Part shown: in pieces, positions 9,060-53,355 of the stretch
Layout of the letters: every line of letters begins with the position of its first letter
How positions within the stretch are numbered: position 1 is the first letter of the stretch
Source of the DNA: an uncultured Alphaproteobacteria bacterium
GTDB taxonomy: Bacteria > Pseudomonadota > Alphaproteobacteria > RF32 > CAG-239
NCBI GenBank assembly: GCA_949297665.1
Contig: CASFTO010000090.1
Span: 33,378-97,377 of the forward strand
DNA length: 64,000 nt
Direction of reading: 5' to 3'
The notes under the pieces: model-generated
What the model saw: only the letters and a program-made list of their open reading frames with translations
Told to the model about the DNA's origin: nothing
Databases searched by the model: none
Made by a program: the position numbers and the translations under genes

Positions 9060-10448
9060 TTATTTTCCTATACAAAAACTTCCAAAAATATTGTTTAGTA
9101 TTTCACTAACTTCAACACATCCTGTTATTTTTCCAATAGCTCTGCAGGCAAGTCTGATATCCTCCGTAGCAAGTTCTATTTCTTTATCTAAATTAAAAAT
9201 CTCAAGATTTTCTAGACACTCTTCAAGAGCCTCCCTATATCTCATTCTGGTTATTAAACAATTTGAAGATAAAGAAAAATTATCTTTTATAGTTTCTATA
9301 ATGGCAGTTGTCAGAATATCAATTCCTTGATTGTATTTTGCAGATATTTTTATATGGTTCTTTTTTTCTATATTATTCTTAAGTGATACTTTATCGATTT
9401 TATTTGCTACATAAAATACCTTTCCGTGAAAATCTTTTAGAGCTTTAAATTCACTGTTTTTATTCGTAGAAGCATCATATAATGCGATTACGATATCGGC
9501 TTCGGATATTTTTTCTTTAGCAATTTCTATTCCTTGTTTTTCTATAGGATTCTCAGTTTCTCTTATCCCGGCTGTATCAGTTATTATTACAGGATACCCC
9601 CCCATATCTAAATTTATATCTATTGCATCACGCGTTGTACCGGCTATATCCGATACAATAACAGCGTTTCTTTTAACCAATGCATTTATTAAACTTGACT
9701 TTCCCGCATTCGTTTCTCCGGCAATTACTATGCGAAAACCATTTCTTAAACGCTCATTAACATTGTTTTTTTGTAAATGTTTTGCTATTTCTTTTTTCAC
9801 TTTAAATACAGTGTTTAAAATATCTTCACTCAAATTTTCAGGTATATCTTCTTCCGGGAAATCAATAAATGCTTCAAGATATGTTAAAACTTTTACCAAA
9901 TCTTCACGCCATGATGTATATAAATATCTTAAGTTTCCTTCCATTTGTTGCAATGCATATTTTTGCTGCATAGATGTTTCTGCATCAATTAAATCAGCAA
10001 GACCTTCTGCCTCCGTTAAGTCCATTTTTTGATTATAAAACGAACGTTTTGAAAATTCTCCAGGCTCAGCTAATCGAACATTATCAAATTCACTTAGCGC
10101 ATCCAAAATGCTTGATAGTACAGCTTTTGAACCGTGACATTGTATTTCGGCAATATCTTCGCCTGTAAAAGAATAGGGGGCCTTAAAGTATATAACCAAT
10201 GCTTTATCCAAAAGTTCTTGTGTATTCTTTTTCTTTATGTCGGTAAAGTAAGCATGGCGTTGCTTAATCGTTGCAATATTTATATTTGTCATTTGCGATA
10301 TTACATTCAGAACCTCTTCACCTGAAATTCTTATTACGGCAACACCTGACTTTCCATAAACAGTCGATAAAGCATATATTGTTGATGAAGACATTTTTAC
10401 TCCTTTTCTTTTTTTTCTTATAAGTAGCTTTTTTTGTATATTACGCAA
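9060..10448 (-). CDS. mnmE: tRNA modification GTPase MnmE (TrmE)
   Basis: G-domain motifs GETNAGKSSL and DTAG; C-terminal CIGK tetrapeptide at the very end. Confidence 0.9.
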   Translation of the reverse strand: MRNIQKKLLIRKKRKGVKMSSSTIYALSTVYGKSGVAVIRISGEEVLNVISQMTNINIATIKQRHAYFTDIKKKNTQELLDKALVIYFKAPYSFTGEDIAEIQCHGSKAVLSSILDALSEFDNVRLAEPGEFSKRSFYNQKMDLTEAEGLADLIDAETSMQQKYALQQMEGNLRYLYTSWREDLVKVLTYLEAFIDFPEEDIPENLSEDILNTVFKVKKEIAKHLQKNNVNERLRNGFRIVIAGETNAGKSSLINALVKRNAVIVSDIAGTTRDAIDINLDMGGYPVIITDTAGIRETENPIEKQGIEIAKEKISEADIVIALYDASTNKNSEFKALKDFHGKVFYVANKIDKVSLKNNIEKKNHIKISAKYNQGIDILTTAIIETIKDNFSLSSNCLITRMRYREALEECLENLEIFNLDKEIELATEDIRLACRAIGKITGCVEVSEILNNIFGSFCIGK

Positions 10449-37811: not shown

Positions 37812-40448
37812 CTAGCTCACTTTTTTCTTTTCAGGAATAAAGTTTTGGTCGAGCATAATATTTTCAACAGCTAACTCTGTTGATGGTTGGTATGCAATAC
37901 CACTTTCTATAATGTTTCCAACGTTTAATAGGTCAGAATCGTTAGATTTTAAGCAAGAAATTGTTTTTTCATCTGCTTTGATTACCAGACTTAAAACAGG
38001 GTTCTTTTGAGATTTATTCTCAATGGTCTTTTGCTTACGAATTTCTGTAGAAACGGTAGAAATTGTGTTGTACAGAAGAGCGTTTTCTGCACTAATAGAA
38101 TCTAAGCAACTTAATGATGTCCAAAGTTCTTTGTGAACAGAAATGTCTGTTGCTTTTTTCCATGGACGTGCTTGATATACTTCTTCAGTAATGAATGGGC
38201 AGAATGGAGCTAACAATTTGATAAAGGTATCAAGTGAGAGCTTTAAGGTTGCGATTGCTGAAGAGTTATCTTCGGAGTATGCACGTTTTTTTACAATTTC
38301 AACATAGTTATCGCAGAAATCCCAGAAACGTGTTTCTATTGCATCAAGAGCTAATGAATAGTCGTAGTTTTCAAAGCTCTGTTTTGCTGATTTTATGGTG
38401 TCTGCCAAATTCTTAATCCAAGATTTATCTAAGCTATTGGTTATATCATTCAGATAATCGGCAGATGTTGAATTGCCAACAATCATAAATACAAATTTGC
38501 TGGCGTTGTACATTTTTACAACCAACTTACGACCTTGTTGCATCATCTTTTCTTCAAAAGCCGTATCCGCACCGAGTTTTGCTTTGGCTGCCCAATAACG
38601 AACAGCGTCGGCAGAGTGATTTTCAATCAAATGCATCGGCGTTACAACGTTTCCTTTGGATTTGCTCATCTTTTTACGGTCTGGATCAAGGATAAAACCA
38701 CTGATGAGTGTTTTGTACCAAGGAATTGTGTTTTCGTGCATTAAGCTTTTGGCAATTGTGTAGAAAGCCCAAGTACGAATAATGTCGTGAGCTTGCGGGC
38801 GAATATCAAACGGCATAGATAAATTTGAGTTATCTTTTGCCATAGCCATTGCGATTTGTGGTGTTAAAGAAGATGTTGCCCATGTATCCATAACATCAGG
38901 GTCTCCGGCAAATCCGTTTGGTTGGTTTCTTTGAGCTTCTGTATAGCCGTTTGGAGTATCTGCCATTGGGTCTATAGGAAGTTGGTCTTTTTCTGGCAAA
39001 ATAACGCTATTATAATCAATATTTCCGTTAGCATCTACTTTGTACCAAACAGGGAATGGAACGCCAAAATAACGTTGACGGCTAATGCACCAATCTTGGT
39101 TTAATCCTTCGGTCCATGTTTCATAACGATGTTGCATATATGCCGGTAACCATTCAATTTTGCGTCCAGCGGAGAGCATTTCTTGTTTCATATCCATCAA
39201 GTTGATAAACCATTGACGAGATGGCACGAATTCAAGCGGTAAATTACCTTTTTCATAGAATTTTACCGGATGCATAATTTTTCTGGGTTCGCCGATTAAG
39301 TAGCCTTGTTCTTTTAACATTTCGGCAACTTTCTTTTTAGCGATATGCGCAGGCAAACCAATTAATTGATTAAAGTTCTGTTGAGCTTTTTCTTTATTAA
39401 GCGTAGTGAAAGGACCTTCGCCGTAGGTGATGTTCATGATTTTGCCATCAAGACCGATGATTTGCTTAATCGGCAGACCGGATTTTTTCCACCAAGCAAC
39501 GTCGGCGGCATCACCAAAGGTGCAGACCATCATAATACCGGTTCCTTTGTCTTTTTCAGCGTGTTCGGATGCAACAATCGGAACAGGAATATCAAACAAC
39601 GGAACAATGGCTGTTTTGCCGAATAAATGTTTGTAACGTTCATCATCCGGATGAGCCACAATAGCTAAGCAAGCGGCTAAAAATTCCGGACGAGTGGTAG
39701 CGATAGTAAAGGTTTCGTCGCTGTCTTTAACACTAAAGCGAATATCGTGGAAGTAACCCTCCATTTCTTTATCTTCAACTTCGGCTTGAGAAACAGCGGA
39801 TTTAAATGTAACATCCCACATAATCGGAGCTTCTACGGCTACGACTTTGCCTTTTTTGTATAAATCCAAGAAGGATGCTTGAGAGATTTTTATGGATGTC
39901 GGACTGATTGTGGAATAAGTCAAATTCCAATCATAAGAGTGTCCGATACGACGGAAAACGTTTTCAAAGATTTTTTCATCTTCTGCGGTTAGGGTTTCGC
40001 AGGCTTCAATAAAGTTTTTGCGGGAAATTTCTTTGCGTTCGTCTTTGCTGTTTTCAATATGAACAGGTTTGAAATTCGGGTCATAAGCAACTTTGGGGTT
40101 GCAAGCGATGTTATAATAGTTTTGAACACGGCGTTCTGTCGGTAAGCCGTTGTCGTCCCAGCCGATTGGGTAGAACACGGATTTTCCCTGCATGCGTTGA
40201 TATCTGGCAATAATATCGGTTTGAGTATAGCTGAAAATGTGACCGATATGCAAAGAGCCGGAGACGGTTGGCGGCGGGGTATCTATCACAAAACTGTTGT
40301 CACGGCTTTGTGTGGCATCATATTTATAAACCTCGTTTGCGCTCCAATATGCGTCGCAACGTTTTTCTATTTCTTCGGCATTAAATTGACTATCTAATCC
40401 TTGTTCTTCTTTATAAGACATTGTTTCGTTTACTCCAATAAAAATCAA
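37812..40448 (-). CDS. valS: Valine--tRNA ligase
   Basis: 878 aa; HIGH (SLHIGH) and KMSKS motifs; class I editing-type aminoacyl-tRNA synthetase architecture. Confidence 0.95.
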   Translation of the reverse strand: MIFIGVNETMSYKEEQGLDSQFNAEEIEKRCDAYWSANEVYKYDATQSRDNSFVIDTPPPTVSGSLHIGHIFSYTQTDIIARYQRMQGKSVFYPIGWDDNGLPTERRVQNYYNIACNPKVAYDPNFKPVHIENSKDERKEISRKNFIEACETLTAEDEKIFENVFRRIGHSYDWNLTYSTISPTSIKISQASFLDLYKKGKVVAVEAPIMWDVTFKSAVSQAEVEDKEMEGYFHDIRFSVKDSDETFTIATTRPEFLAACLAIVAHPDDERYKHLFGKTAIVPLFDIPVPIVASEHAEKDKGTGIMMVCTFGDAADVAWWKKSGLPIKQIIGLDGKIMNITYGEGPFTTLNKEKAQQNFNQLIGLPAHIAKKKVAEMLKEQGYLIGEPRKIMHPVKFYEKGNLPLEFVPSRQWFINLMDMKQEMLSAGRKIEWLPAYMQHRYETWTEGLNQDWCISRQRYFGVPFPVWYKVDANGNIDYNSVILPEKDQLPIDPMADTPNGYTEAQRNQPNGFAGDPDVMDTWATSSLTPQIAMAMAKDNSNLSMPFDIRPQAHDIIRTWAFYTIAKSLMHENTIPWYKTLISGFILDPDRKKMSKSKGNVVTPMHLIENHSADAVRYWAAKAKLGADTAFEEKMMQQGRKLVVKMYNASKFVFMIVGNSTSADYLNDITNSLDKSWIKNLADTIKSAKQSFENYDYSLALDAIETRFWDFCDNYVEIVKKRAYSEDNSSAIATLKLSLDTFIKLLAPFCPFITEEVYQARPWKKATDISVHKELWTSLSCLDSISAENALLYNTISTVSTEIRKQKTIENKSQKNPVLSLVIKADEKTISCLKSNDSDLLNVGNIIESGIAYQPSTELAVENIMLDQNFIPEKKKVS

Positions 40449-40507
40449 ACTGTTGCAGATTTTAGCAAGAGCTTATTTAAAAGTAAAGGATTTAAATGGT
40501 TTTGAAT

Positions 40508-40880
40508 GAGCGGTTTAAGCGAAAAAGGCGATTTTTTGAGATTGTGGGGCAAGGGAGATTTTGAGGTTTAAAGTCTATTTGTTTAAAAAAGCGGAGTCAA
40601 ATTGACGGAATCTACAAAAAAGTATTGAAAACAATAGAAAAAGATGTTATAGTTAAGATGTGAATTTATATTTAGGTGTTTTGAATTATTTTAGAGTTTA
40701 TTATGCAAGTGGTCTTTCGGGATTATTTACTGATAACTTCTCTGGAAGAATTTGAAATGCCTTTTTTATGTTGAATTTTTAATTTAATATCCATATGAGA
40801 GCAACAAATTTTTTCTTTAAAACAGCCTTATGTGCTGTTTTTGCATTGGTGGCGATAGCCATTAATGCTCAGAAGATTGT
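40508..40880 (+). repeat. Direct repeat copy 1 (promoter + 5' leader + signal-peptide coding) shared with 41723-42095
   Basis: Roughly 370 bp at about 95% identity by eye; includes identical Met-Arg-Ala-Thr-Asn-Phe-Phe-Phe-Lys-Thr... signal peptides. Confidence 0.9.
40625..40653 (+). promoter_or_regulatory. Sigma70-like promoter TTGAAA-N17-TATAGT inside repeat copy 1 (the identical element in copy 2 is at 41841-41869)
   Basis: Hexamers and spacing read from the sequence; lies about 140 nt upstream of the ATG. Confidence 0.4.
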
Positions 40881-41646
40881 TAATGGAGTGTCTTTGACCA
40901 AGAAAGAGGTCAAGGAACTCTTAGTGAAAGATCCCTCTATGAGAATTTCCATGGAGGAAAAAGAAATCTCTCGCGCGGCAGATTCTATCCGCGTAGAGAG
41001 AAAGATCGCGTACACACGCGATAATTCTTTTTTCTTTTATCGGGATACAATCTCCCGATACGTTGGGAATTCAAATGAAATTGATTTTGCCACGAAGGAA
41101 GCCGTGCTTCGTGGTGAAAAAGAAGTCCGCTCAAGCGCACAGCGTGCGGACGGAACCAGAATTAACGGTATCTATGTATCTGCTCTGGGAGGAGCGGATT
41201 ATGTGGATAAGACGCTGAACGCCAAGGCAGGTGTTCGCGTTGGTGTGAATTTTAAGCGCCTTCTGCTTGAAGTGGAAGGAGCTTATTCCACCAGCGCGCA
41301 TACTTCTCGCTCCACCTTGAGTGGGAAGTATGACATCATTGCCGTAAGTGGCAATGTAGGATATAAGTTCTGGCAAGACCGGAACTATCGTTCCTATATT
41401 GCTGCTGTATTGTCTGCCGGATATGCCCTGCAGACATCAAGCGGCTCGGATGATGTCGCCAGAACCCAGAATTACGGGTTCATTGGGGCGTTGAATCTGC
41501 GGGGAGCTTGGTCGTTTGCCCCTAGCTGGCTTCTCTTCGGAGAAGTTGGTGCCACCCTGAAGCCGGAGGTGTTCCATACGGAAGGATGGCAGCAGATGGA
41601 CAACATTGGTCCGTGTGCCGCTCTAGGGCTGACCTACCTCTTCTAA
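40795..41646 (+). CDS. Outer-membrane beta-barrel protein (paralog 1)
   Basis: Signal peptide MRATNFFFKTALCAVFALVAIAINAQK; C-terminal ...LGLTYLF; GC-rich body. Confidence 0.75.
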   Translation: MRATNFFFKTALCAVFALVAIAINAQKIVNGVSLTKKEVKELLVKDPSMRISMEEKEISRAADSIRVERKIAYTRDNSFFFYRDTISRYVGNSNEIDFATKEAVLRGEKEVRSSAQRADGTRINGIYVSALGGADYVDKTLNAKAGVRVGVNFKRLLLEVEGAYSTSAHTSRSTLSGKYDIIAVSGNVGYKFWQDRNYRSYIAAVLSAGYALQTSSGSDDVARTQNYGFIGALNLRGAWSFAPSWLLFGEVGATLKPEVFHTEGWQQMDNIGPCAALGLTYLF

Positions 41647-41722
41647 AAGACCACTTTATGAAACAGCAGATTTTAGGAATTCCCTAAAGTTTGCTGTTTC
41701 TTTTTGTTTTAAAAGGATTTTT

Positions 41723-42095
41723 TGAGCGGTTTAAGCGGAAAAGGGCGATTTTTTGAGATTTTAGAGAGAGGGGGAATTTGAGGTTTAAAGTCTATTTGTT
41801 TAAAAAAGCGGAGTCAAATTGACGGAATCTACAAAAAAGTATTGAAAACAATAGAAAAAGATGTTATAGTTAAGATGTGAATTTATATATTAGGTGTTTT
41901 GAATTATTCTAGAATTTTATTATGTGGTGGTCTCTTAGGGATTATTTACTGATAACTTCTCTGGAAGAATTTGAAATGCCTTTTTTATGTTGAATTTTTA
42001 ATTTAATATCCATATGAGAGCAACAAATTTTTTCTTTAAAACAGTCCTCGTGGCTGTTTTTGCATTGGTGGCGATAGCCGCTAGTGCTCAGAAAG
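41723..42095 (+). repeat. Direct repeat copy 2 of the promoter/leader/signal-peptide cassette
   Basis: See copy 1. Confidence 0.9.
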
Positions 42096-43024
42096 TGGTT
42101 AAAAATATCAATGTACGCGACACCACAGCGTGCGTTGCATATTTAAGTGAGAACTTAAGAGACACTATTGCGTCAGTGTCTCGTTGTGAGAGAAATGACA
42201 CCGTGTTCGTGAAAACGACGCGCGTGTTTGTAAAAAACAACGCTGTCGTTTTCCGGACAGACAGCGATGTCTATACACTAGATCCGGAATATCTGGCAAA
42301 GAAGGCTGAAAATGCTGCTTTGCTGGATACCCTCTACAAGAAGAGCGTTGGAGCTCTCTTTGTAGAGAAAGTGAAATCCGCAGGCGAGGAAAACAAAAGA
42401 GACACTTACTTCACGGAGGTAGGTGATTCTTTAAGAATTCCGCACGCCTCTGCGGACAAATACGGTGCGTCATTGGAAGTCTCTGGCGGTTGCTTGTTCT
42501 CCGAAACGGTGACAAGCCCGCTGATCAGCGTCGGCTTTGAATATTCCGGCTCATGGTGGGCTGGGATTTTAAACGCCGAGATTGGCTGGAACAAGTATAA
42601 TAAGAACGCGGTGAATGCCGGAAGTTCTTATTTAACTTACAGCACCGAACTCTTGGGTGCTGTACAGCCGTTCAAGCTCAACAAGGCCAACACCGCCAGA
42701 TTGTTTCTGGTCGGTGGTGCCGGCTTCCAGTGGTATTCCACTGACTCCAAGCCTTGGTTAGGCGAGGATGGTCAGTGGTACGATTTCCGCAGCGGCGGAA
42801 ATTCACCGTATTGGACGGCAGGTCTCCGCTTTGAGTGGCGGAAATTTGCCACTGGCAATAGCTGGACGGTATCAATACTTTACCGTCAGCTGACAGGTTC
42901 CGGAGTCATCCAGAACGCTTCTCTTGAAAGAGAGAATGGCGTGATGGTGAAGGTCGGATACTCGTTCGGTCTTTGCCGGAACAAGGTTGGTTCCGTTAAG
43001 GAGTCAAAGGCACTGGCTTACTAA
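42014..43024 (+). CDS. Outer-membrane beta-barrel protein (paralog 2; mature domain unrelated to paralog 1)
   Basis: Signal peptide MRATNFFFKTVLVAVFALVAIAASAQK; Gly/aromatic-rich strands; GC-rich body. Confidence 0.75.
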   Translation: MRATNFFFKTVLVAVFALVAIAASAQKVVKNINVRDTTACVAYLSENLRDTIASVSRCERNDTVFVKTTRVFVKNNAVVFRTDSDVYTLDPEYLAKKAENAALLDTLYKKSVGALFVEKVKSAGEENKRDTYFTEVGDSLRIPHASADKYGASLEVSGGCLFSETVTSPLISVGFEYSGSWWAGILNAEIGWNKYNKNAVNAGSSYLTYSTELLGAVQPFKLNKANTARLFLVGGAGFQWYSTDSKPWLGEDGQWYDFRSGGNSPYWTAGLRFEWRKFATGNSWTVSILYRQLTGSGVIQNASLERENGVMVKVGYSFGLCRNKVGSVKESKALAY

Positions 43025-43185
43025 TAATTGCAGGGAAAGATGAGGGCGTATGCTCTCGCTTTCTCTGCTTTTTTTATGGTTAAAAAGGGGATTTTTGAGT
43101 GTTTTTAGGATTATAGCGCGCGATTTTTGTTGTTTTAGACGGAAAAATAGGGTATAATTCTATTCAGAACTAAAATTATTTAGAT

Positions 43186-43800
43186 ATGAAGAAGAATTTT
43201 TTCGCAGTCATGGCAGCGATAGTTGTCATCTGCTCGGCTTTTGTTGGAAATGCGTCTGCACAGTGTCTTTACCGCTATGATTACGGTTATGGCGGGGGCG
43301 GTTTATTTGGTGAAGGAGCTAATTTCTACGCCGGATTTGGCGCAGGTGCCGCTCTGGTCAATGACCTTGCTTCTCCAACATTTAGCGCGCGTTTGGGCGT
43401 AGAAGCAGGACTCTTTGTGGCAGAGTTAGAGGGAAGCTATCTCTCTATCAATTCCGTTTATGATGATGGCTTTGAACCCGAAACAAACACCCTCTCTACC
43501 ATGACGGTGGGGGTAAACGTTGGGCTTAATATTTTAGCTTCCTCCGTGGGGCTCTTGTCCTTGATGCTCCATACGGGGTATGCACTGCAAGAGGAATGGT
43601 ATCATGGTGGTTATTATGACTATTATGGTCATGCCTACTATGGGCGTTATTATATCGGAGTCGGCTTAAACGGTTCCGTCAATCTGACGAATCGCTTGGC
43701 TCTCTTTGCAGAGGCAAGGTATCAGTCCATCCCGATTGACGGATGCGGAGAAACGAAATGGGGAGGTGTTCTCTCCGGCGGACTCCGTGTCTATTTCTAA
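43186..43800 (+). CDS. Outer-membrane beta-barrel protein (third, small Gly/Tyr-rich)
   Basis: Signal peptide MKKNFFAVMAAIVVICSAFVGNASA; C-terminal ...GLRVYF; a -10-like GGTATAAT upstream. Confidence 0.7.
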   Translation: MKKNFFAVMAAIVVICSAFVGNASAQCLYRYDYGYGGGGLFGEGANFYAGFGAGAALVNDLASPTFSARLGVEAGLFVAELEGSYLSINSVYDDGFEPETNTLSTMTVGVNVGLNILASSVGLLSLMLHTGYALQEEWYHGGYYDYYGHAYYGRYYIGVGLNGSVNLTNRLALFAEARYQSIPIDGCGETKWGGVLSGGLRVYF

Positions 43801-43963
43801 ATTATGTTGAACTCTTTTTAAGCGGTGGGAGAAATCTCGCCGCTTTTTTGCGCTCGCTGCTTTTTGTTTTTTTGATGTGGCTTTTTTGTTAGGTCGGACT
43901 TGAAAGAAGTTTGACGGTGATTATATCAACAGGGTATCGTTTTAATTTTGGAGGATGTTGTAC

Positions 43964-44281
43964 ATGAATAAATTGTTTATGGGGCTTTTGGCTATGGCCG
44001 CTTTGACACTCATTGTGACAAAGGCTATCGCCGGTGCCAGCAATACAAATAATAATGCGGCAAATGCTGCGGCTAATGCCGATAACGGAGGAGTCATGAT
44101 TATCGAAACTTATTCGGCATCTTCGGTTGCTACTCCGGGGAATGCTGATGGTAATAATGATATGCAACCACTGCCCGGCGATCCAGGGGTTGAAGTTGCA
44201 CCACTTGATTCTTCTGCCGCTCAACCGATTATGGTTGAAGAAGAGGATGTGATGATTCAACAAACAGAGGATGGTGAGTAA
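43964..44281 (+). CDS. Small secreted acidic low-complexity protein
   Basis: RBS GGAGG upstream. Signal peptide MNKLFMGLLAMAALTLIVTKAIA followed by an Asn/Ala/Asp-rich and Glu-rich tail. Confidence 0.5.
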   Translation: MNKLFMGLLAMAALTLIVTKAIAGASNTNNNAANAAANADNGGVMIIETYSASSVATPGNADGNNDMQPLPGDPGVEVAPLDSSAAQPIMVEEEDVMIQQTEDGE

Positions 44282-44426
44282 TCTCTTATCTTTAAATACA
44301 TCGTTTAAACACCTTTAAATACGCCGTTATCTTCAACGACGTATTTTTTTGTTGGAATGTTGTAAAAAAATGGTAACTCAAAGTCGCGAAAATGTTATTT
44401 AAATACACTGTGTAAATTTATATAAG

Positions 44427-44460
44427 AAAACACCTCGCACTTGAGCACGAGGTGTTTTTT
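44427..44460. terminator. Bidirectional intrinsic terminator downstream of rpsA (minus) and the secreted-protein gene (plus)
   Basis: aaaacacctcg-loop-cgaggtgtttt followed by TTTTTT. Confidence 0.75.
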
Positions 44461-44477
44461 GTGATTAAAGAATTAAA

Positions 44478-46160
44478 TTATTCTTTGTTTTTCAAAGCTT
44501 CGCCTAAAGCGTCACCTAAAGTAGAACCGGAAGCGTTTGAAGCTGAATATTCTTCAATTGCTTTCTTTTCTTCTTCAATCTCATAAGCCTTTACAGAAAC
44601 ACCTAATTTTGCGTTTTTGCGATCAACAGAAGTTAATTTTGCTTCCAAAACGTCACCTTCTTTGTAGCTTAACGGATCGTTGTTTTCTTTAGATAAATCT
44701 GCTTTCTTAATTGTTGCAGCAATGCCTTGAACTGTTACTTGAACACCTTTTTCATCAGCACCGGTTACGATTGCTTTAACAATGTCTCCTTTTTTCAAAG
44801 ATTCTAATGTCATGGCAACGTTGTTTTCAGACATTTGTTTAATGCCCAAGCTGATGCGCTCTTTTTCTACGTCAACATCAATGATTTTTGCTTCAATTGT
44901 TTGACCTTTGGTGTAATCTTTAACAGCCTCTTCGCCGGATTTTTCCCAAGAAATGTCAGACAAGTGAATCATACCATCAATTTCGTCAGACAAACCAATG
45001 AACAAACCAAATTCGGTGATGTTCTTAATTTTGCCTTCGATAACAGATCCTAATGGATGTTCTTCAATGTATGCAGCCCATGGATTTGGTGTGCATTGTT
45101 TGATGCCCAAACTGATACGGCGTTTTTCCGGATCAACTTCAAGAACTTTAACTTCAACTTCTTGTGATGTTGAAACGATTTTACCAGGATGTACGTTCTT
45201 GCGTGTCCAGCTCATTTCTGATACATGAACAAGACCTTCAATGCCGTCTTCGAGTTCAATGAATGCACCGTAATCAGTGATGTTGGTTACTTTTCCTTTG
45301 TAGATTTCGCCGACTTTATACTTGTCTGCAACAGCTTGCCATGGGTCATTTTCCAATTGTTTCATGCCAAGGCTGATACGTTGTGTATCTTCATTGAATT
45401 TGATAACTTGTACTTTTACGGTTTGTCCTAATGAAAGTACTTCTGCAGGATGATTGATTCTCTTCCATGAAATGTCAGTAACGTGTAATAAACCGTCTAC
45501 ACCGCCCAAATCGATGAATGCACCGTAATCAGTTAAGTTCTTAACGATACCTTCTAATACGGAACCTTCTTTGATGGTGTCTATTAATTCAGCGCGAGCT
45601 GATGCTCTGGTTTCTTCTAACACAACTCGACGAGAAACAACGATGTTACCGCGTACTTTGTCCATCTTCAAAATTTGGAACGGTTGTGAAATTCCCATTA
45701 GAGGTGTGATGTCTTTAATCGGGCGGATATCAATTTGTGAACCCGGCAAGAAAGCAATCGCACCATTCAAATCAACAGTGAAACCGCCTTTAACGCGACC
45801 GAAGATTACACCGTTTACTCTTTCGTTGTTGTTCATCATCTTTTCAAGGTCTTGCCATACTTCTTCACGGCGCGCCTTTTCACGAGATAATACGATGTTG
45901 CCGTCTTTGTCTTCGTATCTGTCTACCAATACTTCTACAACGTCGCCAACTTTTAATTCATCGTTTCTTCCGAATTCGCGAAGCGGAATGCGGCCTTCTG
46001 ATTTCAAACCTACATCAACAGTTGCGAAATCGTCTGTTAAACGAATGATTGTTCCTTTCATAACTGTGCCAACAATGCCTTTGTTGCCGAATTGTTCATT
46101 CAACAATTCTTCAAAATTTTCAGTCATTTCAGGAATTTGTATTTCTGCAGTATTTGCCAT
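44478..46160 (-). CDS. rpsA: 30S ribosomal protein S1
   Basis: 560 aa with six tandem S1 domains. Confidence 0.95.
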   Translation of the reverse strand: MANTAEIQIPEMTENFEELLNEQFGNKGIVGTVMKGTIIRLTDDFATVDVGLKSEGRIPLREFGRNDELKVGDVVEVLVDRYEDKDGNIVLSREKARREEVWQDLEKMMNNNERVNGVIFGRVKGGFTVDLNGAIAFLPGSQIDIRPIKDITPLMGISQPFQILKMDKVRGNIVVSRRVVLEETRASARAELIDTIKEGSVLEGIVKNLTDYGAFIDLGGVDGLLHVTDISWKRINHPAEVLSLGQTVKVQVIKFNEDTQRISLGMKQLENDPWQAVADKYKVGEIYKGKVTNITDYGAFIELEDGIEGLVHVSEMSWTRKNVHPGKIVSTSQEVEVKVLEVDPEKRRISLGIKQCTPNPWAAYIEEHPLGSVIEGKIKNITEFGLFIGLSDEIDGMIHLSDISWEKSGEEAVKDYTKGQTIEAKIIDVDVEKERISLGIKQMSENNVAMTLESLKKGDIVKAIVTGADEKGVQVTVQGIAATIKKADLSKENNDPLSYKEGDVLEAKLTSVDRKNAKLGVSVKAYEIEEEKKAIEEYSASNASGSTLGDALGEALKNKE

Positions 46161-46326
46161 TATTTTTTATTTTCAAAAAATGCCAGACCCTCATAAGAGG
46201 CGGACTTGTGCATATTAAAAATACTTCTTTATGCTGCACCGCATAAAAGAATTGTCAGACTCTTAGCTTTAAATATCTAAAAAGTCAAGAAAATTGTGTT
46301 AAAATCGGTGCTTTTGTTACTTTGTT

Positions 46327-47088
46327 TTAGACTTTGTACGGAAGGCGTTTGTATATGAAATCACTTATGCAATTGGGGAGAATGCTTCCTAACCATACGG
46401 CTAATCTCATTGGCCACGGAAAGGCTATTAAACCGATGTTCTTTTGTATCCTTTTAGCAATGATTTCTGCAGCTTTGTCGGCTTCCATAAAAAATGGCAT
46501 CGGACAGGTGTTTTTGTCGGTGATTCTTGAACGGACGAATCCGGGACATATTGTGTTTACTTGTATGTTGTAAGCTAGCAAATTTAAACGTAGAGCTTCT
46601 CCGTATGTTTTTACACATGCTTTGGTGGCACTGTATGATGGACAGGCAGGAAGTCCATGATAACCGGCAATGGATGCTGTGATGGCAATGATTTTGTCTT
46701 TATCGGTTCTTTTTTTATAATTTTCAATGGTGGGAGTGATTGTATTTATTACTCCCATGACGTTTGTATTGAATGTGTTGTATATATTTTCGGGGGTTTC
46801 TTCTAACGTGGCGACGCCTGCATTAGCAAAAACTAGATTTAGTGGTGTTGATTTTTCTGCGGTATTTATCCAATTTTCAACTTCTTCTTTGTTGGTTATG
46901 TTGATGATTTGGGCGTGAATTTTTGCTTTTCCGATTTTTTGACATGCTTTTTTTACTTTGCTTAATCTTTGTTGGTTTCGTCCACAGATGTATAGATTTT
47001 CTGTTTCTTGCTGTTGCGCGTAATATAATGCCAATGCTTCACCTATTCCCGATGATGCGCCCGTAATCAGAATATTTTTGATAATCAT
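46327..47088 (-). CDS. Short-chain dehydrogenase/reductase (SDR) family oxidoreductase
   Basis: TGASSGIG cofactor motif and a Y-x3-K catalytic region. Confidence 0.85.
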   Translation of the reverse strand: MIIKNILITGASSGIGEALALYYAQQQETENLYICGRNQQRLSKVKKACQKIGKAKIHAQIINITNKEEVENWINTAEKSTPLNLVFANAGVATLEETPENIYNTFNTNVMGVINTITPTIENYKKRTDKDKIIAITASIAGYHGLPACPSYSATKACVKTYGEALRLNLLAYNIQVNTICPGFVRSRITDKNTCPMPFFMEADKAAEIIAKRIQKNIGLIAFPWPMRLAVWLGSILPNCISDFIYKRLPYKV

Positions 47089-47223
47089 GGTGTAATCCTT
47101 TAAATAAAACTTTATTTATGTGTTTTATCATATATATTACTTCTTAAGAAATGTAAAAGGTTAGAAAAAATTATGAGGCTTTTTATGACTGATTGTAATT
47201 ATAGAAATAAAAGAAAAGGTACG

Positions 47224-47832
47224 ATGTTTATTTTTTCAGCTCCGAGTGGTGGCGGGAAAAGTTCAATTATTAGGGAAATATTAAAAAATTTGGATGATAT
47301 CCAACTTTCTGTTTCTGTTACAACGCGTTTGCCCAGAGATGGGGAAATTGAAGGTAAAGATTATTATTTTATTTCAGAAGAAGAGTTTGCTAAGTTGATT
47401 AAAAATAATGAGCTGTATGAATATGTTAATTCTGATTTCGGACCAAAGTACGGGACTCCTAAAATGCAGGTTGATAAGCTCTTAAATCAGGGAAAAGATG
47501 TTATTCTTGATTTGGATTTTTTCGGTGTTCAAAATTTAAGAAAATTGGCTGGTGACAGAGTTAAGGCTATTGCGTTAATTCCTCCGTCAATGAGAGTTTT
47601 GCGTGAGAGATTGGTCGGACGGGCTACCGATGCGGATGAAATTATTGAGCGCCGGATGAGTATGGCTGAAAAAAGAATTAAAGAATCAATGTTTTATGAT
47701 TATGTTATTGTGAATGATGACTTGGATAAGGCTGCGGATGAAGCTATTTCTATTATTAAATCGACTCGAGTTGAAAGAAAAAATATTTGCGAATTGGAAG
47801 AACTCATCAATCAGATTGTGGAAGATAAGTAA
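47224..47832 (+). CDS. gmk: Guanylate kinase
   Basis: P-loop SAPSGGGKSS right after the ATG at 47224 (RBS AAAGG). The ORF track offers an upstream alternative at 47173. Confidence 0.85.
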   Translation: MFIFSAPSGGGKSSIIREILKNLDDIQLSVSVTTRLPRDGEIEGKDYYFISEEEFAKLIKNNELYEYVNSDFGPKYGTPKMQVDKLLNQGKDVILDLDFFGVQNLRKLAGDRVKAIALIPPSMRVLRERLVGRATDADEIIERRMSMAEKRIKESMFYDYVIVNDDLDKAADEAISIIKSTRVERKNICELEELINQIVEDK

Positions 47833-48756
47833 ATGACTAAGATTTATAATTCAATTGTTGAAATGGTGGGGCATACGCCTTTGTTGAGATTAGGAAATCT
47901 GACAACGAAGTTTAAGTTAAATGCCGAGATCTTGGCAAAGTGTGAAATGTATAATCCTCTTTTTTCGGCAAAAGACAGAGTGGCGTTGTCAATGATTCAA
48001 AAACAAGAAAAATCGGGCGTAACCGATGATACGGTTTTTGTGGAGGCGACTTCCGGTAATACGGGAATTGCTTTGGCTGCGATTGTTGCTGCAAAAGGAT
48101 ATAAATTGATTATTGTTATGCCGGAAAATATGTCGCAAGAGAGAATCGCTTTAATGCGTCATTTGGGAGCAGAGGTTATTCTTACTCAGGCCGAAGATGG
48201 TATGAGCGGTGCTATTCATAAAGCCGAGATTTTAAAAGAAAGGAATCCTAATGTCGTTATTTTAAATCAATTTGAAAATGGGGCGAATCCTGATGCTCAT
48301 CGGATGGGAACAGCTATGGAAATACTAGAAGATACCGGTGGTGATTTTGATGCGATTGTTGCAGGGGTAGGAACTTCCGGTACACTTACAGGTCTTGCTT
48401 CTGTTTTGAAAACGTATAATCAGGATTTGTTTGTCGCCGCAGTTGAACCGGCCGGTAGTGCAGTCTTAAGCGGGGAAACTTCCGGTATTCATAAAATTCA
48501 AGGAATTGGTGCAGGTTTTGTTCCGGCTTTGTATGATAAATCTTTGGTTAGTGAGATTATTAAAGTTAGTGATGATGAGGCTATTGAAATGGCTAGAATT
48601 GTTGCTAAAACTGAAGGTTTGCCAATTGGTATTTCCGGCGGAGCTGCCGTTGTTGCGGCTGTCGAATTGGCAAAACGTGCGGAGTTTCTTAATAAACGCT
48701 TGGTGGTTGTTTTACCTGATAGTGTTGAACGCTATTTGTCTACAGGATATTTTTAG
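47833..48756 (+). CDS. cysK: Cysteine synthase A (O-acetylserine sulfhydrylase), PLP-dependent
   Basis: PLP lysine region SAKDRVA; TSGNTGIALA; GxGTSGT glycine loop. Confidence 0.9.
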   Translation: MTKIYNSIVEMVGHTPLLRLGNLTTKFKLNAEILAKCEMYNPLFSAKDRVALSMIQKQEKSGVTDDTVFVEATSGNTGIALAAIVAAKGYKLIIVMPENMSQERIALMRHLGAEVILTQAEDGMSGAIHKAEILKERNPNVVILNQFENGANPDAHRMGTAMEILEDTGGDFDAIVAGVGTSGTLTGLASVLKTYNQDLFVAAVEPAGSAVLSGETSGIHKIQGIGAGFVPALYDKSLVSEIIKVSDDEAIEMARIVAKTEGLPIGISGGAAVVAAVELAKRAEFLNKRLVVVLPDSVERYLSTGYF

Positions 48757-48761
48757 GATTT

Positions 48762-49874
48762 TTGACAATGATGAAACCAAATTCAATTTTAGGTTCTTAC
48801 CTTATTAAACAGACAATATTGAATTTCTTGTTTGTTTTGGGGATTATTTGCGCAATTATCATGATGTTTGATATGATTGAAATTTTGCGTAGGACTTCTG
48901 GTCGTCACGATGCGTCTGTTGGTTTTTTGTTGCAATATGTTATTGCTAAATTGCCGGAAACAGTTGATAAAGTTGTTCCTTTTATTGTAATGGTTTCAAC
49001 AATGATTGCTTTTTGGCGCTTGAGTAAAACAAATGAATTTGTGATTATTCGGGCAACCGGTGTGTCTATTTGGGGAGTTCTGACGCCGGTGTTGTTGGCT
49101 GTGTTTGGAATAGGTGTTTTTTGGGTGGCAGTCCTAAATCCGATTTCGGCTAAATTGTTTGAATTGAAAGAAACTATGTCTTATCGCTTATCTACGGATA
49201 ACCCTAATGCTATGCTCTTTTCTAATAAAGGACTCTGGATACGAGAGGGGAAAAGTGATGGTACTGTTGCTATTCTTAATGCCGGTAGTCTTAATTTGCA
49301 AGATGGGGTGCTATGGCTTAGGGATATCAGTATTATTGAAGTTGATGACAATACTCAAGTGAAACGTCGTCTTGAGGCTTTTGTTGCAACGTTGGAAGAC
49401 GGTGATTTGAATTTACGCGATGTGCGTATTTATAAAGCCGGTCAACAAGCTGAGATTTTAAATAGTCTTAAATATCCGACTGAGATGAATATCCAACGTA
49501 TTAAAGATAATTTTGTAGATCCGGAAGCTATTTCTTTTTGGAATTTACCGGATACAATTGAATTTTATGAAACCTCCGGTTTTTCTGTGCAACGTTATAA
49601 AATGAGATATTTAAGTTTAATTGCTTTGCCGTTTTTCCTGATGGCAATGGTTTTGGTTGCAGGAATTTTCTCATTGAAAGCTAGTCAGCGTCAAGGCGGA
49701 GTTTTGTTAATGATTGTATCCGGTATTGCAACAGGATTTACGGTTTATTTTACTTCGCAAGTTATTTCTGCTTTTGGGGTAAATGCGTATATTCCGGCGT
49801 GGTTTGCTGTTTGGGCTCCGGCTATTGTGGTTGCATCAATCAGTATCTCTGTTTATTTACATAAAGAAGAATAG
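48762..49874 (+). CDS. LPS export ABC transporter permease, LptF/LptG (YjgP/YjgQ) family
   Basis: 370 aa with six TM helices and a periplasmic beta-jellyroll insert. The sequence alone cannot distinguish LptF from LptG. Confidence 0.75.
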   Translation: MTMMKPNSILGSYLIKQTILNFLFVLGIICAIIMMFDMIEILRRTSGRHDASVGFLLQYVIAKLPETVDKVVPFIVMVSTMIAFWRLSKTNEFVIIRATGVSIWGVLTPVLLAVFGIGVFWVAVLNPISAKLFELKETMSYRLSTDNPNAMLFSNKGLWIREGKSDGTVAILNAGSLNLQDGVLWLRDISIIEVDDNTQVKRRLEAFVATLEDGDLNLRDVRIYKAGQQAEILNSLKYPTEMNIQRIKDNFVDPEAISFWNLPDTIEFYETSGFSVQRYKMRYLSLIALPFFLMAMVLVAGIFSLKASQRQGGVLLMIVSGIATGFTVYFTSQVISAFGVNAYIPAWFAVWAPAIVVASISISVYLHKEE

Positions 49875-49877
49875 TAA

Positions 49878-50315
49878 TTATTGGAGCAGTGATATTATTT
49901 CCGATGATATTTTACACGGACGCATATTTTCCAGACTTAGAAATACTAGAGTGATGTCTATTTCGCACAATATGTTTTCTCCGCGGTAAAGTTTCTGTTC
50001 CATTTTTAGAGATACACCTTTGATTTCTGTTATTTTGCACGTTATATCTAAAGCATCGTCGAGTTTTGCCGGAGATTTATAACTAATGTTACAGTCGCGG
50101 ACAACAAAGCCTTTTCCTTCTTTTTTGAGCATTTCTTCTTGATTGATTCCTAAATGACGGAGAAATTCCGTTCGGGCTCTTTCTGCGTATTTTAAATAAT
50201 TTGCGTAGTAAACTATGCCACCGGCATCGGTGTCTTCATAATAAATTCTTATAGGGAATGAAAATGTTTTATCTTCAAAGAGTTTTCCTTTTATTGTGTC
50301 TGTGGTATATGTCAT
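49878..50315 (-). CDS. ybgC: Tol-Pal-associated acyl-CoA thioesterase YbgC (4HBT family)
   Basis: Hotdog-fold motif YYEDTDAGGIVYYANYLKY; position next to ruvB. Confidence 0.8.
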   Translation of the reverse strand: MTYTTDTIKGKLFEDKTFSFPIRIYYEDTDAGGIVYYANYLKYAERARTEFLRHLGINQEEMLKKEGKGFVVRDCNISYKSPAKLDDALDITCKITEIKGVSLKMEQKLYRGENILCEIDITLVFLSLENMRPCKISSEIISLLQ

Positions 50316-50319
50316 CTTC

Positions 50320-51381
50320 TTAAATTCCTAAATCATCCATAAAACTAAATTGGTTATTGTTGTTTTTGAATTTGCTTATGCCTAAATATTTGCATCCTTG
50401 TTCAGATAAAACACGTCCTCTTGGTGTACGTTGTAAAAATCCCAGCTTTAGCAAATAAGGCTCAATTACTTCTTCAATTGTATCGCGTTCTTCTGATAAG
50501 GCTGCGGCTAATGTATCGGCTCCGACTGGACCTCCTCCATAGTTCTTTGCTATGCAATTTAAATATCTACGGTCAAATTCATCTAATCCATATGCATCGA
50601 CATCTAATAATCTTAGGGCTTTGTCGGCAATTGCTGAATCTATTTCAACATTACCGGCAACGGCTCCGAAATCTCGAACACGTTTCAATAAACGACCGGC
50701 AATACGCGGCGTGCCTCGCGAACGTTTGGCTATTTCCATGGCGCCGTCATTTGAAATCGGCATGTTTAATAAGTGTGCGCCTCTTAATACGATTTTTTGT
50801 AAATCTTCATGATTATAAAAGTCCATACGCAACGGAATTCCAAAGCGTTCTCTTAATGGGGTAGATACTAGACCCGAACGTGTTGTTGCGCCGACTAGTG
50901 TGAAAGGTTGTAAGTCTATTTTTACCGAACGAGCGGAAGGACCTTCCCCGATAATAATGTCTAGTTGAAAGTCTTCCATGGCGGAATATAAAACTTCTTC
51001 TATGGCGGGGTTTAGACGATGAATCTCGTCGATAAATAATACATCTCTGGCTTCTAAATTTGTTAATATTGCCGCTAAATCTCCGGATTTTGTTATCATT
51101 GGTGCTGATGTTGCCTTAAATCCTACTCCCAGTTCTTTAGATATAATGTTGGATAGGGTGGTTTTACCTAGACCGGGAGGTCCGTAAAGTAATACATGGT
51201 CTAAAACTTCACCTCTGCTTTTGGCAGATTGGATGAAAACTTTTAGGTTTTGACATACTTTTTCTTGCCCGACAAATTCATCTAATGTTGTCGGACGTAA
51301 ATTTATGCTTGCCGGAGAATTGTTTTCATCAGTGGAGAGTTTTTTTGCGCTTACAATTCTTTCTTTTTCATCGGACAGCAT
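50320..51381 (-). CDS. ruvB: Holliday junction branch-migration ATPase RuvB
   Basis: AAA+ Walker [10 protein letters not shown]; 353 aa. Confidence 0.95.
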
Positions 51382-51383
51382 AG

Positions 51384-52073
51384 TTATTTCTCCAGTTGAT
51401 TAAATTCTTTTAGAGCCAGACGTATTAATGTTCCTAAATCAGCTTTAGGATTATTTAAGCAAATTTCTGTGGCAACACGATAAGCATCGATTTTTTGATA
51501 TCCTAAATTGGTTAAGGCTGAAGTTACGTCTTCTGTGTTATTATAGGTTTGACTTTCTGTATCTTCTGTATCAGAGATTTTTGATGGGGAAACTTTGGCT
51601 GTTGTTTCTTCTGCGCTTACTTCTGTGAATTGTGCTTTTTCTATATCCGAGGTTCCCATATATTCAACGGGAATGGTGACAATTTTATCTTTTAATTCCG
51701 TTACTAATCGTGCAGCCAATTTGGGACCGACACCTGAAGCTCTGAGAAAAGAACTTTTATCTTGTGCGGCAACGGCTTGCGATAGTTGTGCCGGTGATAA
51801 TGCACTTAATATACTTAAGCAAACTTTTCCTCCAACGCCTTGTATTTTGGTCAGAGTGTTAAACCATTCCTTTTCCCACGGATTTTGAAAACCGAACAGT
51901 GTTATACTATCTTCTTTTATTACAGTTTCTATTAATAAAGAAGCATATTCGCTTTGTTTTAGTTTTGAAAGTGATCGAGATGACATGTTGACGAGGTAGC
52001 CAACCCCGTTTACGTCTATGATGCAACAGTCTTCTCCTATGTTGTCAATAATTCCTTTTAATTTTGCTATCAT
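51384..52073 (-). CDS. ruvA: Holliday junction DNA helicase RuvA
   Basis: [10 protein letters not shown]-terminus with RBS AAAGGA. The ORF track extends 17 codons further, to 52124. Confidence 0.9.
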
Positions 52074-52209
52074 CTTTTTTCCTTTGTTTTTTGTAAGTCT
52101 AAAGGTCTTTTTGTCGGCCTTCAAGTGTTTTTTTATATAACCCCCTTTTATTCGTGGTTTTGATGGTTATATCCGTGATGATGTTTAAACATTATTAAAG
52201 GATGTAAGG

Positions 52210-53355
52210 ATGAAAGAATGTAAGGTGTTTATTTTAGCTTTATTGTGTTTTATGGGGACGGAAAATGCCGGTGCGGAAAGTTTAATATCTGAGTATCAGC
52301 AGTTTAAAAATAATCTTAATCAAAAATACGGGTTTGATTATAATGTTGATGTTTCCGTATTAGGACAGCGAACCAGTCCAAGTGGTAAAAATAATGCGGT
52401 TCAAGCATATATTTATCCCGAATTTTCTTGGACGACTTTTGATAATCATTATGGTACCGGGACTTTAAATTTTGCTTATACAATTATTCGTTACGGAAAT
52501 CATAATGCAAATGATTTAGCGGGTAATTCCGGCTTTGTTACGGGAATTAATGATTATACCAATGACGAAAATCAGTTTGATGAACTCTATTATACTTATC
52601 AATTACCGGCGAATTGGAATTGGTTAACTTTTGCTCTCGGACAATTTCCTCTCTATAATTTTGACGGGACAAATTATGATTCTAATCAGCAAGTTAATTT
52701 CTTAAATGATTCTTTGGCACAAAACGCTTCGGCTTCATATTCTGATGCCGGTTTGGGTGGGTATGTGCAGATTACGCCTAATGATGAATGGAACTTTACG
52801 TTTGGTGGACAAGATGCTACAAATGTTGAGGCTCCCAGTATCCGTTTTAATCATTTGGATGAAAATCATTATACAACATTTGGATATGTTGCGTATACTC
52901 CCACTATTAAAGGTTTAGGGGATGCGGAAATTTCTTTGTTGGTATATAATCAACCGGCTGTTACAGAACAGCCTCAGACAACTAATGGGTGGTCGCTTAA
53001 TTTATCTCAAAATATTGGGGAAAAATTTAGTGTTTTTGCTCGTGTAAATGAAGTTAGCGGTAGTATGGAAGAAATTCGACAATCTTGGGTATTGGGAGGT
53101 GTTTATAACAATCCTTTAGATAGGAACCCTTTGGATCAAATAGGTTTAGCGTATGCTTATAATAAAATCGATGAAGCGGCTGTCGGTGAACAAATTTCTC
53201 ATAAGGCTGAACAAATTATAGAGGCGTATTGGGCGTGGGGAATTGGTGATATGTTGACGATTACTCCTGATGTGCAGTTGTATATTAATCCGGCGCTTAA
53301 TCAAAAATCTGATTATGGGGTGGTTACCAGTCTGCGTGCAACTGTGTTCTTTTAG
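52210..53355 (+). CDS. Outer-membrane porin (possibly OprB-like carbohydrate porin family)
   Basis: Signal peptide, beta-strand-rich sequence, C-terminal ...LRATVFF. The OprB-family assignment is tentative. Confidence 0.65.
   Translation: MKECKVFILALLCFMGTENAGAESLISEYQQFKNNLNQKYGFDYNVDVSVLGQRTSPSGKNNAVQAYIYPEFSWTTFDNHYGTGTLNFAYTIIRYGNHNANDLAGNSGFVTGINDYTNDENQFDELYYTYQLPANWNWLTFALGQFPLYNFDGTNYDSNQQVNFLNDSLAQNASASYSDAGLGGYVQITPNDEWNFTFGGQDATNVEAPSIRFNHLDENHYTTFGYVAYTPTIKGLGDAEISLLVYNQPAVTEQPQTTNGWSLNLSQNIGEKFSVFARVNEVSGSMEEIRQSWVLGGVYNNPLDRNPLDQIGLAYAYNKIDEAAVGEQISHKAEQIIEAYWAWGIGDMLTITPDVQLYINPALNQKSDYGVVTSLRATVFF

Follow-up and report, generated by a model that had tools for sequence, protein, structure and literature searches.

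A duplicated promoter and leader module with signs of recurrent gene conversion heads two adjacent outer-membrane protein genes in uncultured human-gut Alphaproteobacteria

Why do two adjacent outer-membrane protein genes with strongly diverged bodies begin with nearly the same DNA? This question is raised by a 64,000-nucleotide stretch (the window) of contig CASFTO010000090.1 from an uncultured Alphaproteobacteria bacterium, in which genes A and B are each headed by one copy of a direct repeat comprising promoter, leader and signal-peptide codons. The best overall explanation, which we consider probable, is a duplicated expression module in front of two paralogs, with recurrent gene conversion between the module copies. 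All coordinates are window positions (1–64,000), and all listed features lie on the + strand unless stated otherwise. A, B and C are the three membrane-protein genes of the locus, and L-numbers (L001–L030) denote related contigs from other assemblies.

The direct repeat and the two genes it heads

40508..40880, + strand: module copy A of the direct repeat, with distal upstream region, promoter, leader and the first ~29 codons of gene A
41723..42095, + strand: module copy B of the direct repeat, with the equivalent parts before and into gene B; junctions in L001–L004
40795..41646, + strand: gene A, 283 amino acids (aa), predicted signal peptide, small N-domain and eight-stranded beta-barrel
42014..43024, + strand: gene B, 336 aa, predicted architecture as A

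Globally aligned, the two module copies are identical in 349 of 379 columns (92%). The original prediction had given about 95% for these segments; the repeat itself lies where it was placed. The 30 differing columns (18 substitutions and 12 gap columns) are grouped in few clusters, the longest perfect match spans 112 nucleotides (nt), and the edges of the module are sharp, with an identity of 20–28% in the 40–60 nt beyond either end. The module consists of ~290 nt of non-coding DNA plus, in the window, signal-peptide codons, the first 27–29 of each gene. Its promoter (TTGAAA-N17-TATAGT, at 40625–40653 and 41842–41870) and the common N-terminus MRATNFFFKT..VFALVAIA..AQK of the 283- and 336-aa reading frames had been described correctly. 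The AT-rich leader is likewise present, with a length of about 134 nt in place of the predicted 140 nt or so.

The direct repeat is real, and its internal junctions are confirmed by independent contigs. L001 and L002 match 40727–41875 and 40739–41832 at 100%, L003 and L004 match 41946–53024 and 41958–45892 (99.97–100% over all four contigs), and the two-copy layout recurs in about 20 other assemblies. Short-read contigs often end within the repeat (L001–L004, L006 and L007), which is the expected behaviour of a real repeat and explains why short-read assemblies break at this locus. In L005, the closest long relative, module copy A contains a scaffold gap (NNNNN, 9805–9809) and has 42 nt of the promoter in duplicate; here the repeat has disturbed the assembly.

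The proteins behind the two modules had been regarded as unrelated beyond the signal peptide. This does not hold. By hhalign, A and B are homologous over their first ~85 residues (99% probability, E 8e-18); the score comes partly from the signal peptide, and the YLVKNP-DT motif is aligned too. AlphaFold models built from family alignments, with a mean predicted local distance difference test score (pLDDT) of 66 and 68 and values of 75–92 in the barrels, share one order of elements: a signal helix, a helix at residues ~36–46, three strands at ~51–89, a helix followed by a poorly modelled linker, and eight long strands. A ~60-residue N-terminal domain thus stands ahead of the barrel in both proteins. 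In Foldseek searches both barrels match NspA, the OmpA transmembrane domain, Ail, OmpX, OmpW and the OprF N-domain, with E values of 8e-7 to 1e-3 and a template modelling (TM) score to target of 0.5–0.68. Because they share the N-terminal homology, the modelled domain order and matches to the same OmpA/NspA/OmpX/OmpW barrel class, A and B as modelled are old, strongly diverged tandem paralogs of the same architecture.

Profile comparison detected no homology between the A and B barrels, the B barrel being too diverged. Searches of Pfam and NCBIfam with A, B, C, the small gene 3′ of C and all family members gave nothing above threshold; the best Pfam score was 13.9 bits for OMP_b-brl_2 (cut-off 27), B had no match, and one relative matches OMP_b-brl at E 0.0016. 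A PDB sequence search with the A profile returned no match.

Concerted evolution of the modules and variation of the protein bodies

The module alignment comprises 21–22 copies from 11 genomes, and segment identities within and between genomes were taken from 10 genomes. In each of these 10, the promoter-proximal blocks in front of A and B are 98–100% identical, whereas the mean identities between genomes are 85.7% for A–A, 85.1% for B–B and 85.4% for A–B. The leader is 91–100% identical within genomes versus 88–89% between them. Each lineage carries its own pair of variants, as is seen in L009/L016, L014 and L015, where variants are common to both copies. That orthologous copies are no closer to each other than non-orthologous ones, and that each lineage has its own pair, is the signature of repeated copying. 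Judged by these identities, the modules are homogenised by recurrent gene conversion, that is, they show concerted evolution.

The 3′ end of the conversion tract can be located in single lineages. Spacer and signal-peptide codons of A and B are 100% identical in L009, L014 and L016; in the window the spacer is 100% and the signal-peptide codons are 86% identical; in L008, L010 and L012 the signal-peptide codons are ~50% and the spacer 52–73% identical. Across genomes the identity of the A and B signal peptides ranges from 49 to 100%. The tract ends before the ATG in L008, L010 and L012, at codon ~29 in the window and at codon ~83 in L029. Two types of signal peptide, ..FFKT.L.AVFALVAIA.. and ..FLKSIIFMMMVAFVAMSA.., each occur on A and on B bodies in different strains. 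The clearest event, in L029, leaves both copies identical over 486 nt save one mismatch, through codon ~83; gene A of L029 then becomes the L015 gene A sequence, switching at a common GGATAC, and its product joins the B N-domain to the A linker and barrel.

The high identity within genomes (98–100% versus ~85% between them), the shuffled signal peptides and the L029 chimera bear out the recombination or gene conversion that the original prediction had placed at the 3′ edge of the module. Its proposal of cassette-style swapping stands in part: the 5′ module moves, sometimes together with the N-domain, and the barrels are not swapped between A and B.

A fusion at the same spot was observed in L030 (283–1614; P0004, ERZ16268252 scaffold_11642), where a 443-aa reading frame joins a DUF4143-family N-part to gene A from residue ~81 (FFYRDT...). 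The junction contains no Ns and lies at the CGGGATAC spot that is the breakpoint of the L029 chimera. A real rearrangement may have produced the fusion, or else a mis-join.

The search for relatives of gene A led exclusively to metagenome assemblies and metagenome-assembled genomes (MAGs) from the human gut, in records labelled 'uncultured Alphaproteobacteria bacterium', 'uncultured Rickettsiales bacterium UMGS1453' and 'Acetobacter sp. 46_36'. About 20 related contigs of this origin carry the locus with valS, A, B, C and rpsA, and all contigs of sufficient length have a common layout: valS (− strand), A, B, C, a small gene, in some a 276-aa gene, and rpsA (− strand). Every such locus has exactly two modules, one before A and one before B, with L027 as the exception; single module copies are seen in truncated contigs and in L027. 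A covariance model of the leader, run on the window and 24 loci (~300 kb), found no copy beyond the known two per locus, and its weak matches (E 0.15–1) lie mostly in short inter-gene regions. L027 (424–4416; ERZ1026944 NODE_3016, coverage ~5) contains valS (− strand), a single module and then directly gene B, and lacks gene A. Either recombination between the direct repeats has looped gene A out, as such repeats would lead one to expect, or the repeat collapsed in short-read assembly.

In a neighbourhood that is otherwise conserved, A and B stand out as much the most variable genes. Between L013 and the window, nucleotide identity is 97% in valS, 100% up to 40500, 82–92% in module A, 43–62% in the A body, 87–91% over the intergenic region and module B, 30–63% in the B body and 77–96% from gene C onward. 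At the protein level A and B are ~45% and gene C is 92% identical between the two. The mature parts of A (40886–41646) and B (42181–43020) likewise have ~45% protein identity to strains whose valS is 94–97% identical in nucleotides. The A and B bodies fall into two deep allele classes, and the distribution of these classes does not follow valS: L005 (valS 94.4% identical in nucleotides) has the window-type alleles and L013 (97%) has the other type. Such a distribution fits an exchange of alleles between strains, and we infer that the conserved modules, together with the conserved flanks, would serve as homology arms for exchanging the hypervariable A and B alleles. With this extreme variability, both proteins are probably under selection by phages or host immunity and are likely to serve as strain markers.

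The three membrane-protein genes also differ from their surroundings in base composition. A, B and C have 48–49% GC and a GC content at third codon positions (GC3) of 47–54%; the window has 35.8% GC, the non-coding module 29% GC, and GC3 of valS, rpsA and mltA is 30–36%, with 33–36% for valS and rpsA. The high-GC trend of A, B and C is repeated in L005, L008 and L013. The genes may be of foreign origin, or GC-biased gene conversion may act on them at a recombination hot spot.

Could the likeness of the two modules have arisen in another way? If A and B were plain tandem paralogs whose upstream regions are kept alike by purifying selection alone, with no copying, A–A identity would be expected to equal or exceed A–B identity. 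Leader and promoter are indeed constrained, being still 73–82% identical where synonymous sites are saturated, but every between-genome class lies at ~85% and both copies within a genome agree at 98–100%. The lineage-specific variants common to both copies in L009/L016, L014 and L015, the shuffled signal-peptide types and the clean chimera of L029 also speak against selection alone, which makes this account very improbable. Scarcely credible is an assembler that duplicated one module or misjoined two genes, even though short-read assemblies break in the repeat (L001–L004, L006 and L007), one scaffold has Ns inside it and contig L027 is without gene A. The copies differ at 30 alignment positions and each has its own unique flanks, each junction is reproduced at 100% by independent contigs, and in more than 15 contigs, derived from varied samples and assemblers, both copies are present with their order unchanged; the concern about an assembly artefact that accompanied the original prediction is contradicted by these contigs and by the ~20 other two-copy assemblies. 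Least credible of all is a small mobile, promoter-carrying element, similar to a miniature inverted-repeat transposable element (MITE), that inserted twice. Its appeal lies in the sharp repeat ends and in the AT-richness of the module (29% GC) relative to the flanking genes. The copies number just two and occupy the same places in every relative, neither terminal inverted repeats nor target duplications were observed, and the 3′ end enters the coding sequence at varying points; a MITE or insertion sequence remnant was rejected on the two fixed copies and the lack of terminal inverted repeats.

Gene conversion between duplicated modules thus probably accounts for the locus. One duplicated module, made of upstream blocks, sigma-70 promoter and ~134-nt leader, would head the adjacent and separately terminated genes A and B, and recurrent conversion between the direct repeats would keep the modules alike inside each genome. 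The 3′ end of the conversion tract would differ by lineage, an end at codon ~83 yielding a chimeric protein. Both proteins would be made from the same promoter and leader; the co-regulation of A and B that had been proposed would follow naturally from the shared expression module.

Promoter region and leader of the module

40530..40540, + strand: GATTTTTTGAG motif in the distal upstream region, exact 11-mer, possible regulator site
40572..40615 (copy B 41789–41832), + strand: the most conserved upstream blocks, AGTCTATTTGTTTAAAAA and GTCAAATTGACGGAATCTAC
40625..40653, + strand: putative sigma-70-type promoter of gene A, TTGAAA-17-TATAGT, with TG extension before the −10 element; 10/12 consensus
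41842..41870, + strand: the same sigma-70-type promoter, gene B
41660..41710, + strand: predicted intrinsic terminator of gene A, 18-pair stem and T run
40674..40767, + strand: leader hairpin (40674–40762), then directly U6 (40762–40767), copy A
41892..41986, + strand: leader hairpin and U tract, copy B; covariance-model match 41873–42016, 135 bits
40703..40774, + strand: upstream open reading frame (ORF) of copy A, MQVVFRDYLLITSLEEFEMPFLC then stop, 23 codons, ending 20 nt before the main ATG
41922..41993, + strand: upstream ORF of copy B, MWWSLRDYLLITSLEEFEMPFLC then stop; two compensating indels (−1/+1) keep the frame

The sigma-70-type promoter is conserved in every module copy aligned, and transcription of gene A would start near 40661. 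Gene A has its own strong terminator, so that A and B are separate transcription units. Upstream of the promoter, block AGTCTATTTGTTTAAAAA is invariant in 21 of 21 module copies, and AGTCTATTTGTTTAAAAA and GTCAAATTGACGGAATCTAC are likely to form an activator or UP-type element. Inside these two most conserved blocks we also noted a minus-strand promoter-like site, TTGACT-17-TAGACT (9/12), at 40572–40600 and 41789–41817; it is weak, and its copy A version would face valS. Further upstream, more exact copies of GATTTTTTGAG lie at 41716–41726 and 41747–41757 and degenerate ones near 40553, 41775, 43090 and 43122. The exact 11-mer has 3 occurrences in the 64-kb window, all in modules, and these copies may be regulator sites. 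The distal upstream part is conserved within the close clade only, and the GATTTTTTGAG region is not conserved in L014 and L015.

Folded from the putative transcription start, the copy A leader forms a single long hairpin with a minimum free energy of −33.6 kcal/mol (z −3.1). The L014 leader, 18% different in sequence, adopts the same fold (z −4.6). The stem is ~90 nt long and has internal loops, with just 2–3 G–C pairs beside the U tract; the U tract itself is found in every copy as T5–T8 (T5 in L010_A). The consensus structure has 29 pairs, with 99.5% of cells paired, and 8 pairs vary on one side and 1 on both. Pairing is always maintained, the changes being U–G to C–G, G–U to G–C or A–U, and C–G/U–G/U–A. 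The contig scan returned 7 relatives, which limits the depth of the covariation set.

The upstream ORF begins within the hairpin, crosses its 3′ arm and then the U tract, and reaches its stop codon 12–21 nt 5′ of the main ATG; in two copies it overlaps this ATG. Almost every copy keeps it open behind an ATG or GTG start, and in L014 and L015 its frame is restored by compensating indels (−1/−2). Elsewhere gene callers have annotated it, in L006 and as an N-terminal extension of P0008. In the upstream ORF the nucleotides, and not the peptide, are conserved, which leaves it a putative coding sequence. At the main starts, no Shine–Dalgarno-like tetramer is present at −22 to −4 of A (40795), B (42014) or C (43186), and their start regions consist almost purely of A and T; such a tetramer is present in 30 of the 45 long ORFs of the window.

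Leader and promoter are strongly conserved. Across all module copies 138 of 217 columns are invariant. Compared with the window, L008 has valS identities of 97% (aa), 90% (nt) and 65% (four-fold sites), with 99% in the leader and 96% in the promoter block. The corresponding values are 96%, 88% and 58% with 96% and 91% for L009, and 92%, 80% and 39% (saturated) with 82% and 73% for L014. By this comparison, leader and promoter exceed synonymous sites in conservation and are no less conserved than housekeeping coding DNA. An Rfam 15 scan of 40300–44500 (E up to 10) gave best scores of 12.8–25.9 bits, far below the thresholds.

What could such a leader do? The most likely working model, which we put forward tentatively, is that it works as a translation-dependent attenuator of transcription. 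Read-through into the gene would depend on ribosomes translating the upstream ORF, and the same ribosomes may deliver initiation to the main start, which lies 12–21 nt downstream and has no Shine–Dalgarno sequence. A more far-reaching proposal, which we regard as doubtful, is that the leader represents an undescribed cis-regulatory RNA of gut Alphaproteobacteria, a translation-coupled attenuator that sets the output of surface-protein genes, and that the duplicate modules act as portable homology arms which turn the locus into a built-in surface-variation system. By way of these arms, strains would exchange signal peptides, N-domains and entire hypervariable bodies, both internally and with one another.

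An unlikely alternative to the attenuator is that promoter, hairpin and U tract make up a free-standing small-RNA gene of ~100 nt in two copies, with a conserved trans-acting function, and that the membrane-protein genes are expressed by read-through or processing. The promoter at 40625–40653 is followed ~100 nt downstream by the hairpin ending in U6, exactly this stretch is strongly conserved, and the 27 nt between U tract and ATG leave no room for another promoter. Against it, A and B would then be without a promoter of their own; the unit is, moreover, found always directly upstream of A and B and nowhere else, it has no Rfam family match, and the open upstream ORF across the 3′ arm would be unexplained. 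A small RNA is also compatible with the attenuator model and not exclusive of attenuation. We rate as slightly more unlikely again that the hairpin acts without attenuation, either as an RNA thermometer or as an mRNA-stabilising 5′ structure like that of the E. coli ompA leader. Both come to mind for a long hairpin rich in A–U and G–U pairs in the ~134-nt leader of outer-membrane protein genes, and the 5′ untranslated region of ompA, of similar length, is a known stabiliser. The thermometer arrangement is absent here, because 33 nt separate the hairpin from the main start and neither A nor B has a Shine–Dalgarno sequence that could be masked. A gut organism, furthermore, lives at constant temperature. 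The RNA thermometer, and with it the thermosensor that had been suggested originally, was therefore rejected: the hairpin masks neither a Shine–Dalgarno sequence nor the start codon. A stabiliser would need neither the U tract, present in every copy (T5 in one), nor the open upstream ORF, and stabilisation is possible as a part of the leader function. Attenuator, stabilising leader and separate ~100-nt small RNA are not mutually exclusive.

Against a converted module with an attenuating leader, as preferred here, several points have to be set. We infer from sequence where transcription starts, that it can end at the U tract and that the upstream ORF is translated. The hairpin is long and has many A–U and G–U pairs, and a simple terminator scan did not report it. 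Its covariation is weak: one pair is double-sided, and 32–39 of 500 shuffles equal the observed values, a control that is not decisive because variation is scarce. The peptide of the upstream ORF differs in its mid-section between deep lineages, where another frame is used, and the upstream ORF of L005_B has a distant TTG start only. The module may also look more conserved than it is if strains recombine frequently. Finally, most comparison sequences are short-read MAG contigs, in which fine mosaics of repeats that are 92–100% identical are possibly mis-phased, and L005 has its scaffold gap inside copy A. The combinations of signal peptide and body and the L029 junction should be reliable, because they lie within read length of unique sequence.

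The genes downstream complete the locus.

43085..43140, + strand: partial, diverged copy of the distal upstream segment before gene C
43186..43800, + strand: gene C, 204 aa, related to the A barrel as a barrel-only paralog; it has a short leader of its own and no module

The fragment before gene C, noted originally as a weaker third copy, is real and corresponds to just the distal ~65 nt of the module. By hhalign the barrels of A and C are related (96% probability), profile comparison of B and C detected no relation, and A and C both end in a C-terminal Phe. Gene C is 91–97% identical in amino acids among most of the close clade and 68% identical to that of L009. It is followed by the small gene (43955–44281), conserved 3′ of C in all relatives. 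The product of this gene, 105–114 aa long, matches no family; its N-terminus resembles a signal or lipoprotein sequence, and its middle is of low complexity and rich in N, A and D. Between the small gene and rpsA, many relatives carry a gene of 276–281 aa with a signal peptide and the ending ..ADFYYRIRFIP (L005, 13564–14394; L008, 6648–7478; L013, 9612–10442). It is absent from the window (44282–44477), and no such ORF is listed for L009/L016 or L012.

Relation to known systems

The locus represents a clean, well-delimited case of partial gene conversion, in which a regulatory module is homogenised while the protein bodies are free to diverge. Its hosts, uncultured human-gut Alphaproteobacteria, are a group of which almost nothing is known, and literature on the taxon RF32 yielded nothing useful. 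The conserved leader provides a concrete candidate for a novel regulatory RNA.

The predicted C-terminal domains of A and B resemble known small barrels in that they superpose on NspA, the transmembrane domain of OmpA, Ail, OmpX and OmpW, with Foldseek E values of 4e-6 to 1e-3. Unlike the barrels of OmpA, OmpX, NspA and OmpW, they are preceded by the extra ~60-residue N-terminal domain and reach the threshold of no Pfam family.

For the leader, the nearest comparison is the pyrBI leader of E. coli, in which an ORF crosses the terminator hairpin and U tract and a close ribosome can prevent termination. The upstream ORF described here crosses hairpin and U tract in the same way. In contrast to pyrBI, the putative attenuator gives no hint of a sensed metabolite or of regulatory codons, its hairpin is of far greater length and more weakly paired towards the loop, and the genes behind it code for membrane proteins.

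The closest known kind of system for the conversion is found in Helicobacter pylori, where segments of the paralogs babA/babB, sabA/sabB/hopQ and homA/homB resemble each other more closely within one strain than across strains, and where intragenomic recombination among outer-membrane protein paralogs gives rise to chimeric genes whose middle parts are allele-variable (PMC3960876). Concerted evolution and the formation of chimeras among outer-membrane protein genes are common to both. In the bab and hom genes, however, it is mostly the 3′ end that is homogenised and the loci are dispersed, whereas here promoter, leader and 5′ end are homogenised in adjacent direct repeats, and the proteins are small eight-stranded barrels. 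The opa genes of Neisseria and omp2a/omp2b of Brucella are further families of small barrels or porins with conserved 5′ regions and gene conversion between copies; the regulation of opa works through a coding repeat within the signal peptide, and omp2a/omp2b are converted along the whole gene. A conserved hairpin leader of ~134 nt with an upstream ORF, as carried by the modules of the window, is not known from either family. The conversion pattern is thus one already known from other bacterial surface-protein genes, and the leader it carries along is an undescribed candidate regulatory RNA.

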